Notes under the pieces: model-generated
What the model saw: only the letters and a program-made list of their open reading frames with translations
Database searches by the model: none
What the model was told of the DNA's origin: nothing
Shown: positions 3,319-10,252 of the stretch, piece after piece
Position numbering within the stretch: the first letter of the stretch is position 1
Layout: every line of letters starts with the position of its first letter
Program-made: the position numbers and the translations under genes
Virus record (IMG/VR): IMGVR_UViG_2684622740_000002
Location: 1-30,376 of that record
DNA from: a virus
DNA length: 30,376 nucleotides
Strand: one strand, 5' to 3'

Positions 3319-4572
3319 ATGACCAAATCAAAAATAGTATACAAAAACAATAAACAAAAACTAATCACAGCACCAGTACTCATACCAGACTACGCTGACT
3401 GTGACGCACCAAGAGGAGAGAAAAAACTAACCATAGAAGAAATACAAGACTTCTCCCACAAATACATGGAAAAATACAGAATAAGTGACAAACAACACGA
3501 CTACTTCCAAACCAAAAAAGAAGTAGCTATTCCAGTAGAATCATGGACACTAAAAAGTGACACAGAAATGGACAATGGAGAAACCTACCCCAAAGGAACC
3601 TGATTTGTCACAATGAAAGTCCATGATGATGACACATGGAATAAAATAGAAAATGAAGAATACACTGGATTAAGTGTTACTGTGACTCCTGAAAATGTGG
3701 CTGATGCATTAGTAGCTGGTAAAAGTAGAACACTAATTAAAGATGTTCCCAATCCAGTTGCAGCCACAATAGCTTTTGTTGATAAACCATGTGTTCATAA
3801 GGCCACTTTTTGCAGTGTTAAATCAATTAATTCAAATGAATCTTATGAAAGTAAACACAAACTCTTAAATAATGCATTAAGGAATTTATACCGTGACAAG
3901 GACGTTTATGCTCACATTCTTCTTACATTTGATACTAAAATAATTGCTTATATGGAATGGCAACAATCAGAATCCCATTTTGAAATTCCATACTCCATAA
4001 ATGTTAATGGAGAAGTTGAATTTGGAGAACCACTTGAAGTTCAACAAGAATATGTGGCTAAAAAAATGTTAGAAAAAAGTGAAAAAGACACAGCTATTAA
4101 AGCAGGTAGAAGCATAAGCGATTCCACATACACAAAAATAAAGAAAGCATGGGATTCACTGGGAAACCTGATAAATAAAGCTGAAAATGAAAGAACTGAA
4201 AATGTGATTAAAGGTGATAAAATGACAGACAATAATGAAAAAGAATATGTTACTAAATCTGATTTAGAAAATCTTAAAACTGAAATATTAACAGCTGTTA
4301 AGTCAGCACAAAATAATGAATCTACTTCAAATAAAGAAGAAGATGAACTAACAAAATTGAAAAAAGAAAATGCTGATTTAAAAAAGAAACTTGAAAGTTC
4401 AAATAAATCAGATGAAACTAAAAATGAAGAAACCGACCCTGAAGAAATCAAAGGAGCATCAAAATCAATACCCAACCATGAAACCAACGATCAAATAAGT
4501 AAAAAAAGCACCAAAGCAACAGTATTAGAAGCAATGGGCAGAAATAGCAGCGGACTAACAATAAAAAAATAG
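3319..4572 (+). pseudogene. Prohead protease (XkdF-like serine protease) fused to a scaffold region, interrupted by an in-frame TGA at 3601-3603
   Basis: ORFs 3319-3603 and 3613-4572 are in the same frame and read YPKGT*FVTMKV, where XkdF-type proteases have KGTW...KV. DKQHD lies in the first part and YTGLSV in the second. Confidence 0.8.
4222..4572 (+). CDS. Probable nested in-frame scaffolding protein (116 aa) from an internal start
   Basis: AAAGGTGAT RBS 3 nt before an in-frame ATG (MTDNNEKE...); charged coiled-coil-like sequence immediately before the MCP gene. Confidence 0.5.
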   Translation: MTDNNEKEYVTKSDLENLKTEILTAVKSAQNNESTSNKEEDELTKLKKENADLKKKLESSNKSDETKNEETDPEEIKGASKSIPNHETNDQISKKSTKATVLEAMGRNSSGLTIKK

Positions 4573-4594: not shown

Positions 4595-5647
4595 ATGGAT
4601 AATAACGATATACTAAACGAATTAGGAAACCAAGGAGCAGCATTTAAAGAATTAACCAATATTAAAGATGGGAAAGCAATACTTTCACCAGCACACCTGG
4701 GAAAATTCTTAATGTACGCATCACTTGATCAAACAATACTAAACTCAGCAGCATTTGAACTAATGCCTGCACCAGAGAAAAATTTAAACCGTGCAGGAAT
4801 TGTAGGGAGAGTTTTAAGTAATGGTTATGATGAAGAAGGTAAAACCCGTGAATTAACAGAAGACGAGAAAAAAGGCTTAAGTTTTGGAGCTAACACTTTA
4901 ATAGCTAAAAAACTTAAAGCATGTGCTAAAATAGAAGACGATGATATTGAAGACAATATCACAGGAGAAGCATTAACCAACACATTACTACAAGAAATGG
5001 GTAGAGCTATTGGTGAAAACCTTGAATTATTCGCAGTATTTGGAGACACCACAATAAATAAAGCTGATGATCCTTTACTTTGTATAACTGATGGTTGGTT
5101 GAAATTAGCAGAACATCAAATAGCTGCAGAGGATGATTTCACATTAGATAATGCTTCTCAAATTGAAAATATTTTTGATGCAGGTATTCGTAAATTATCT
5201 CCAAGATTCAGAAAAAGGGATAAATTAATATTCTATGTTCCTTTCGAAGTTGAAGATGCATACCGTGATGTTCTTAAATCACGTAGCACAGGTTTAGGTG
5301 ATGCAACACAAATAGGGTTTGCAGAATTAAAATACAAAGGAATAACCATTAAAAATGCAAACACCTTGGATGACCCAGAAGCTAGAGAATTAATAGGTGC
5401 AGGAAAAGTATTATTAACCCAACCAGAGAATTTAGCCTGGGGTATTAGATCCAACCTCAGTATTGAACCAGAAAGAAAAGCTGGAATGGAAAGAACTGAT
5501 TACTGGTTCAGAATAAGGGGAGATGCTGATCATTACTTCCGAGATGGAGCAGTAGTAACAACAATACCTAATGATATTCTTGATTCCTTAAATGGAATAG
5601 ATACTGAGGATACTGGGGATGGTGGTGAACAATCACCCATTGGCTAA
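4595..5647 (+). CDS. Major capsid protein (HK97 fold)
   Basis: 350 aa, GGAGG RBS, follows protease/scaffold; GRAIGENLELFAVFGD, DGWLKLA and FYVPFEVEDAYRD are characteristic of methanogen/Firmicutes phage MCPs. Confidence 0.88.
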   Translation: MDNNDILNELGNQGAAFKELTNIKDGKAILSPAHLGKFLMYASLDQTILNSAAFELMPAPEKNLNRAGIVGRVLSNGYDEEGKTRELTEDEKKGLSFGANTLIAKKLKACAKIEDDDIEDNITGEALTNTLLQEMGRAIGENLELFAVFGDTTINKADDPLLCITDGWLKLAEHQIAAEDDFTLDNASQIENIFDAGIRKLSPRFRKRDKLIFYVPFEVEDAYRDVLKSRSTGLGDATQIGFAELKYKGITIKNANTLDDPEARELIGAGKVLLTQPENLAWGIRSNLSIEPERKAGMERTDYWFRIRGDADHYFRDGAVVTTIPNDILDSLNGIDTEDTGDGGEQSPIG

Positions 5648-5885
5648 TGTATCTGTTAATGTGAAAGATCAGGATGAAGCTAATCTTCAAGGAGTTTTTG
5701 TTGAGATAGTTGGAACAGAAATTACATGTACAACTGGTTCTGGTGGAGGATGTACTTTACAAGAAGTACCATTAGGAAATATCAGTTATACTGCAGTTAA
5801 AGATGGATATGTTACAGGTAATGGGACTTTTACAGTTACTTCTAATTCTGGAACATTAGAAATAACATTAACTGAAGAAGAATAG
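5619..5885 (+). CDS. Ig-like / carboxypeptidase-regulatory-like beta-sandwich domain; probably a +1 frameshift extension of the capsid protein
   Basis: Overlaps the MCP 3' end in the +1 frame; beta-strand pattern VSVNVKD..LQGVFVEI..CTTG..GGCTL..VP.G...YTAVKDGYVT..GTFTV. Confidence 0.7.
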   Translation: MVVNNHPLANVSVNVKDQDEANLQGVFVEIVGTEITCTTGSGGGCTLQEVPLGNISYTAVKDGYVTGNGTFTVTSNSGTLEITLTEEE

Positions 5886-9594: not shown

Positions 9595-10077
9595 ATGGCT
9601 CTTAAAATATCAACATTAATTAAACAAGGCAAAAAAGACAAACTAATACTCAAAATAGACTCATTAAATGACACTATCGAAGCATCACCACTATCAAGAA
9701 GACAATGGGGAGAAGTTGAAGATATTGAATCACAAGCAATGGGTGAAGTTGAAAACATACAAACAGAAATAGCTGATAAAAAAGGATTCAGAAGCAAATC
9801 CAAAAAAGATAAAAAATTAGAAATGGCTCAAGAACTAAGAATGAAAATGAGCATATCAGAACAAATAGTAAGTTCAAGAGAAGCTCAAACAAGAGCAATA
9901 TACTTATCACTATCACCTCATGACTCATCACTCGAAGAAGACCAAATACAAGATTTACTTAATAAAGAACAGTTTGATGAAATATATGATAAAATACTCG
10001 ATATAAGTGGAATAGTTCAAGATGAAGAAGAAGCTAATGAACTAGGTGAAGATTTAAAAAGATTTCCTAAAGACTGA
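9595..10077 (+). CDS. Tail assembly chaperone (G-like)
   Basis: Position between tube and tape measure; charged helical 160 aa protein. Confidence 0.75.
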   Translation: MALKISTLIKQGKKDKLILKIDSLNDTIEASPLSRRQWGEVEDIESQAMGEVENIQTEIADKKGFRSKSKKDKKLEMAQELRMKMSISEQIVSSREAQTRAIYLSLSPHDSSLEEDQIQDLLNKEQFDEIYDKILDISGIVQDEEEANELGEDLKRFPKD

Positions 10078-10252
10078 TGAATCAAAAGAATTAGCTTGGT
10101 TATGTAGTAAATATGGTGGAAACTACAAACTAGCAGAAGATCCTTTTGATTTAACAATTATTCAATGGTTATGGCAATTTAATTCATCAATATTGCTACA
10201 TAATGAATTAAATAATGTAAAAACTGAAGATTTAGATGATGAAGAAGATTAA
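10058..10252 (+). CDS. Startless ORF in the +1 frame (KDFLKTDESKELAWLCSKYGG...LDDEED); probable T-part of a GT chaperone made by frameshift
   Basis: 64 sense codons filling the gap before the TMP gene, overlapping the chaperone end, with no ATG/GTG in frame. Confidence 0.6.
   Translation, partial: KDFLKTDESKELAWLCSKYGGNYKLAEDPFDLTIIQWLWQFNSSILLHNELNNVKTEDLDDEED

Follow-up and report, generated by a model that had tools for sequence, protein, structure and literature searches.

The window, which is the whole stretch of 30,376 nucleotides that was analysed, belongs to the genome of a member of the Methanobacteriaceae, the family that includes Methanobrevibacter arboriphilus, and represents a myovirus-like (pro)virus. 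It makes up the entire contig C16 of a 2.6-Mb host MAG (93% complete, 295 contigs) and has a GC content of 29%. The structural module encodes a Mu-F-like head protein, an XkdF-type protease-scaffold protein and a capsid protein, together with connector, HK97 gp10-like, tail sheath, tape measure and baseplate-like proteins. The capsid gene (4595-5647, plus strand, frame 0) lies between the protease-scaffold gene and the head-tail connector gene and encodes 350 aa matching phrog_1623 (virion structural protein, E 8e-62). A Pfam search with the window protein itself gave no match; its homologues are annotated at their sources as HK97-family or phage major capsid proteins, and one of them, P0015, carries PF05065 and is called an HK97-family capsid protein. 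Judged from the family match and the position in the head module, the window protein is classed as an HK97-fold major capsid protein. Its C-terminus is an acidic, Gly-rich linker ending in ...DTEDTGDGGEQSPIG before the TAA stop.

The XkdF-type prohead protease-scaffold gene (3319-4572) carries an in-frame TGA at 3601-3603 (...TYPKGT-TGA-FVTMKVHDDDTW), at a position occupied by Trp in four relatives (L001, L003, L006 and L036) whose genes are intact and encode 433-462 aa. The TGA is a nonsense mutation (TGG to TGA), a site of leaky readthrough or a variant in the sequence, and it suggests that this copy of the virus may be defective or decaying. Towards the contig end (25381-29431), a calcineurin-like phosphoesterase gene and a gene for a 947-aa SbcC/Rad50-like AAA ATPase form an SbcCD-like pair, which may originate from the host or be carried by the virus for nuclease or defence functions.

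The 3' end of the capsid gene reads GGT GGT GAA CAA TCA CCC ATT GGC TAA, with the frame-0 stop at 5645-5647, two codons after CCC. On the same plus strand a second ORF extends from stop to stop at 5601-5885 (TAG at 5883-5885) and shares 47 nt with the end of the capsid gene. Its frame is +1, since (5619-4595) mod 3 = 1, and the -1 frame across the capsid stop is open for 11 codons only. The first-pass annotation had proposed a +1 shift at TCA CCC A (5633-5639, plus strand), and its coordinates and sequences for the capsid end, the open +1 frame and the slip site are all correct. The P-site codon CCC (5636-5638) would re-pair to CCA (5637-5639) and TTG at 5640 would be read next. With CCCA (5636-5639) read as one four-base step, we reproduced the proposed product, ...GEQSP-LANVSVNVKDQ..., of 429 aa as against 350 aa, for which the conceptual junction peptide is ...GGEQSPLANVSVNVK or ...GGEQSPLANVSVNVKDQDE. 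An alternative +1 site within the overlap, GGG_G at 5615-5618, was rejected as a feature peculiar to the window that is not conserved. Among 1249 host ORFs of at least 200 codons, five contain an in-frame CCC among the final four codons, and in 48 the +1 frame stays open beyond the stop for 75 codons or more; the two properties coincide in the window capsid gene only (1/1249), which indicates that the combination is more than chance.

The segment that follows the join (5640-5882, plus strand, 81 aa) was characterised with Pfam, AlphaFold2 and Foldseek as a transthyretin-like (CarboxypepD_reg, "Ig-like") beta-sandwich. It matches Pfam CarboxypepD_reg (PF13620) with an E-value of 8e-7 and a score of 29.7 bits, under the curated cut-off of 32.3 bits, and AlphaFold2, given a small alignment, yielded a seven-strand beta-sandwich with a mean pLDDT of 95. 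The first strand begins at residue 2 past the join, in agreement with the earlier claim that the slip joins the capsid protein to the domain exactly at this strand. The domain had also been described as Ig-like, and here the beta-sandwich is borne out while the subtype is not: Foldseek matches with TM 0.83-0.87 to the transthyretin-like domains of carboxypeptidases N and D make it strictly transthyretin-like, and Ig-like only in the loose sense used for phages. Its nearest relatives are mostly repeats within proteins of 1000-3400 aa, together with some small ORFs. No stand-alone close relative of the window's domain ORF was found, and the small domain proteins (alignment A1) are too variable to serve as a locus query. 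The window's domain subtype also occurs in P0091 (518 aa, structural-looking and without a PHROG match), fused in frame via a GGGGPSPIG linker whose SPIG is the same as that at the frame-0 end of the window capsid protein, and this suggests that linker and domain move as a cassette.

Within the window, CCC accounts for 21 of the 249 Pro codons (8%), about half of the 21 being followed by A, and about ten other genes contain an in-frame CCC_A. CCC_A alone therefore cannot shift efficiently, and the shift proposed here is probably inefficient. The codon after CCC at the junction, ATT, is a common sense codon and neither a stop nor a rare codon. A conserved downstream hairpin was looked for and not found, and folding of the 60-90 nt 3' of the window site gave no stable structure (z +1.3, +0.3). 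Upstream, the Gly-Gly-Glu linker contains a Shine-Dalgarno-like run, GGTGGTGA (5621-5628, plus strand), 7 nt before CCC, which is a possible stimulator of the slip. The run recurs at equal spacing to CCC in the related loci L003 and L006, and also in L035 and L036 where the domain is fused in frame, and it is absent from the more distant junctions L047 and L291.

The closest capsid homologues form one clade of eight proteins, with 67-74% identity, in two forms. In P0002, P0005 (L035), P0006 (L001 and L007, the M. arboriphilus type according to its source name) and P0008 (L036), capsid protein and domain are fused in frame and total 423-428 aa. The window, P0003 (L003-L005, from three samples), P0004 (L006) and P0007, for which the layout is known from coordinates only, show the +1 layout with capsid proteins of 338-350 aa. 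The frame-0 junction reads TCA CCC AGC GGA GGC TAA in L003 and TCT CCC TGA in L006, and products joined at CCC amount to 429 aa for the window, 424 aa for L003 and 427 aa for L006, as against 423-428 aa for the fused proteins. Joined at CCC, the L003 product aligns without gaps to fused P0002 (DQSP|AEANISIIPVLVTDG versus DQSP-VDENIATIPVIVTDG). In a tree of the capsid core the window branches first and the fused and frameshifted forms are interspersed, with frameshifted P0007 sister to fused P0008 (support 100/99), which implies at least two changes of state, or three if the best tree is taken. The domain is missing from more distant capsid homologues. P0010, P0011 and P0040, with Pro- or Gly-rich tails, were considered as further cases and rejected for want of a downstream domain ORF. 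When viral, metagenome and genome contigs were searched with protein and alignment queries for more clade members, L001/L048 alone was returned. It lies on contig JARKQC010000016.1, labelled "MAG: Bacteroidota bacterium", and its fusion is 98% identical to that of the Methanobacteriaceae reference G129. This contig probably represents a methanogen virus that was mis-binned. In the related virus group with capsid P0010 (L037-L039), a gene matching Pfam ADPrib_exo_Tox lies upstream of the head module at 19-762.

Simple in-frame fusions in homologues had been regarded in the first-pass annotation as a sign of an indel at this locus. Such fusions are present in the four close homologues, and the +1 overlap is kept in the three others; a mixture of fused and frameshifted forms has been described among the Ig-like domains of phages (PMC5009743) and in MSTV1-like viruses (PMC11375127) as well, and recoding is therefore not refuted by it. 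The fusions also lend some substance to the reading that the window is a decaying provirus in which a recent indel near 5643-5645 broke an ancestral fusion, leaving the domain lost or made in traces. Frame 0 ends in SPIG-stop where fused L036 reads SPIGK and P0091 reads SPIGR, which hints at an indel near 5645; the neighbouring protease gene has the TGA at a conserved Trp; and there is no close relative of the window's domain subtype to show long persistence in the +1 state. We nevertheless consider decay unlikely. The break in the linker, in the +1 direction and two codons past a rare CCC, reproduces the layout of nine other loci, described below, and some of these, as in the +1-layout relatives of the clade, have intact protease genes. 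The domain ORF remains open for 81 codons in DNA of 29% GC and is predicted to fold with pLDDT 95 and, even after an indel, the upstream CCC_A could still pass some ribosomes to the domain frame.

Two of the three fused close relatives, L035 and L036, contain TCA CCC A, and their in-frame fusions (L035 at 1500-1560, L036 at 3480-3540) retain GGT GGT ... TCA CCC ATA G. Since they keep both CCC and GGTGGTGA, neither feature marks the frameshifted form within the window's capsid family. A +1 slip at this CCC would lead at once to TAG and hence to a capsid protein that lacks the domain. TCA CCC A in these fusions either survives as a relic or has been put to a second use.

The stronger comparison comes from ten junctions read as DNA (the window, L003, L006, L044, L047, L284, L285, L287, L291 and L330). 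Every one of them has the domain ORF in the +1 frame, with no -1 case, and an in-frame CCC separated from the stop by 0-3 codons. The upstream genes are phrog_1623-type capsid genes, capsid genes of the Pfam SU10_MCP family and a tail-tube-like gene, and at least three domain subtypes are involved. A query with the L006 domain ORF retrieved L044-L047, where the upstream capsid gene belongs to the unrelated SU10_MCP family, ends TCT CCC TGA and is followed by a +1 domain ORF beginning (P)EGQG; one domain subtype thus occurs with a TCT CCC TGA GGG junction on two unrelated capsid families, and the conceptual junction peptide at the CCC_TGA loci is ...SPEGQG.... A search for the SU10-type capsid in 314 genomes of the family yielded four more +1 junctions: L284 (TCA CCC TAA, then two domains), L285 and L287 (both TCT CCC TGA) and L291 (ATC CCC AGC AAT TAA, with the window's domain subtype). 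In L330 the tail-tube-like gene ends ACT CCC AGT AAC TGA and is followed in the +1 frame by P0140, a small ORF of the window's domain subtype. The loci are not all independent, in that L285 and L287 are related to one another, as are L044 and L047, and L006 has the junction-plus-domain cassette in common with them; the pattern of CCC and +1 nevertheless extends over three types of upstream gene and no fewer than three domain subtypes.

Conservation of a CCC-A site with a +1 overlap had been suggested as a check on the reading, and CCC and the +1 frame do recur at all ten junctions, CCC_A being found at four and CCC followed directly by a stop at six. The sequences after CCC are TGA (five junctions), TAA (one), AGY (three) and ATT (the window). 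The six junctions with the stop adjoining CCC are all at related loci and exclude the window, which, with L003, L291 and L330, has two to three sense codons between CCC and the stop. As controls, five in-frame SU10-type fusions lack any in-frame CCC in the gene, and a terminal CCC is absent from capsid genes that lack the domain; the presence of CCC separates fused from +1 forms cleanly in the SU10-type family only. Matches to a TCTCCCTGAGGGNCAGGG pattern in three sequence collections were discarded as chance occurrences in GC-rich taxa, none of them with a domain ORF. The comparative evidence as a whole supports the original proposal of a +1 recoding event in an archaeal virus, equivalent to those of phages.

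The same junctions bear on whether the domain ORF is a gene of its own. The first-pass annotation had allowed for independent initiation at ATG 5619, and this codon (5619-5621, plus strand) is indeed in the +1 frame with GAGG (5606-5609) nine bases upstream; initiation there, or at GTG 5622 or 5625, perhaps translationally coupled, would give a free decoration protein of 88 aa. Gene callers annotate such ORFs separately (e.g., P0044-P0047), and GTG codons, arising from frame-0 GGT GGT, are present in most of the +1 ORFs. Across the loci, however, neither a start codon nor a ribosome-binding site is conserved. At most loci other than the window these GTG codons are the only candidate starts and lack a ribosome-binding site, L003, L006 and L285 having GTG only and no Shine-Dalgarno-like sequence, and the +1 ORF of L291 contains no ATG, GTG or TTG. 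In the fused relatives the domain is held by a covalent linker alone, such that a free 81-aa domain would be without an anchor, and the stand-alone relatives P0131, P0155 and P0169 carry an extra N-terminal domain. Two separate genes would, moreover, leave both the constant CCC at the join and the constant +1 frame unexplained, and we regard this arrangement as quite improbable. An assembly or sequencing error, or slippage of RNA polymerase, in a gene that is really in frame appears very improbable indeed: the window is one contig of a 295-contig MAG and one extra base would account for the change of frame, but the layout recurs in independent assemblies, different samples and reference genomes. 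Transcriptional slippage was rejected because the run comprises three C residues only, far below known slippage sites.

We consider it probable that the window's virus makes a second, longer capsid protein by a +1 slip of a minority of ribosomes at CCC, although the window's copy is the weakest case and less certain than the family-wide pattern. The slippage itself, its frequency, the tRNA re-pairing and the adhesive role are what we infer in the following scheme. Most ribosomes would terminate at TAA 5645 and yield the 350-aa capsid protein, while a minority, with peptidyl-tRNA-Pro on the rare CCC at 5636-5638, would move ahead by one base; there tRNA-Pro(UGG) would exchange wobble pairing on CCC for perfect pairing on the overlapping CCA. 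On resuming at TTG 5640, these ribosomes would complete the 429-aa capsid protein with a C-terminal transthyretin-like surface domain. Capsids would then carry the domain in sub-stoichiometric amounts, and its probable role would be a weak attachment to glycans or cell surfaces. Among the tRNAs found in the host MAG (G000) and in the complete relative G129, tRNA-Pro has the UGG anticodon only, whereas other four-codon boxes have both GNN and UNN tRNAs. If no other tRNA-Pro exists, reading of CCC depends on wobble, and full pairing is restored by a +1 move onto CCA. Re-pairing to CCA fits the four CCC_A sites, and the classical slow-termination model fits the six sites with CCC directly before the stop.

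The closest parallels are found in bacteriophages. In Bacillus phage SPP1 the tail tube protein is made as gp17.1 and gp17.1*, with a +1 shift at CCC_UAA placing an Ig-like domain on a fraction of the subunits. CCC beside a stop, the +1 direction and a C-terminal domain are common to that system and the present loci, L284 having TCA CCC TAA; SPP1 differs in its bacterial host and in that the gene is for the tail tube, where the window's is for the capsid. Shifts in the +1 direction at CCC were also cited as precedent in the first-pass annotation for Listeria phages, and the literature agrees: PSA, A118 and A500 use +1 frameshifts, at CCC_UGA in tsh and at ACA_CCC_(UCC_GAA) in PSA cps (PMC5009743). 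They resemble the present viruses in their low-GC host, the rare CCC codon and a P-site +1 slip that occurs late in a capsid or tail-tube gene and adds a C-terminal extension; the window's relatives use CCC_TGA exactly, and the L330 junction is on a tail-tube-like gene. Unlike the Listeria phages, the window's virus has an archaeal host and a proposed CCC_AUU site with the stop two codons on and no downstream hairpin found.

Among archaeal viruses, the MSTV1-like viruses ("Usuviridae") of Methanobrevibacter smithii were predicted in 2024 to add an Ig-like domain to the capsid protein by a -1 frameshift at a slippery site "A AAG GAA", and one of ten relatives is an in-frame fusion (PMC11375127). 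Host family, a recoded Ig-like domain on a fraction of capsid subunits and a prediction made from sequence are common to both cases, but the shift is -1 there and +1 at CCC in the window, where the A AAG GAA motif is absent from 5580-5650; the tail sheath gene also places the window's virus in a group other than the MSTV1-like viruses. More generally, promiscuous Ig-like domains move among phage structural genes in or out of frame, the out-of-frame copies being expressed via frameshifting, according to Fraser et al. 2006 as reviewed in PMC5009743. The occurrence of the same domain subtype on unrelated structural genes agrees with this; the phage cases are a mix of +1 and -1, whereas the out-of-frame cases here are all +1 at CCC.

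The addition of a surface domain by a +1 shift is thus known from bacterial phages and almost undocumented in archaeal viruses, the general idea being not new; the literature searched contained no account of a +1 shift at CCC in an archaeal virus. To our knowledge, there is also almost no experimental record of programmed +1 frameshifting in archaea. A conserved and simple CCC site on abundant virion proteins of methanogen viruses from gut, rumen and reactors would provide a tractable natural test case, in particular for reading-frame maintenance on archaeal ribosomes with regard to a single tRNA-Pro, m1G37 and aIF5A. The finding bears as well on the decoration of capsids with adhesion-type domains in methanogen viruses, which has been proposed as an adaptation to the gut habitat (PMC11375127). 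For annotation, capsid and tail-tube genes should be extended to include the small "hypothetical" ORFs that follow them.

A more speculative extension, which we hold to be rather doubtful, is that a single tRNA-Pro(UGG), which the Methanobacteriaceae may have, makes every CCC_A and CCC_stop a low-level +1 site which the viruses use as a two-way switch. The +1 layouts would add the domain to a minority of capsid proteins and the in-frame TCA CCC ATA G fusions (L035 and L036) would drop it from a minority, the opposite ratios being toggled by a one-base indel in the linker, with a second +1 use in the chaperone gene at 9595-10077. This last ORF occupies the tail-assembly-chaperone position upstream of the tape measure gene, and a 64-codon ORF (10058-10252) overlaps it by 20 nt in the +1 frame, not -1, making it a second candidate +1 recoding site, with TTT_C (10063-10066) or AAA_A (10057-10060) as candidate slips. 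A +1 tail chaperone frameshift has been suggested for the haloarchaeal virus HSTV-2 (PMC5009743), which the arrangement in the window would parallel.
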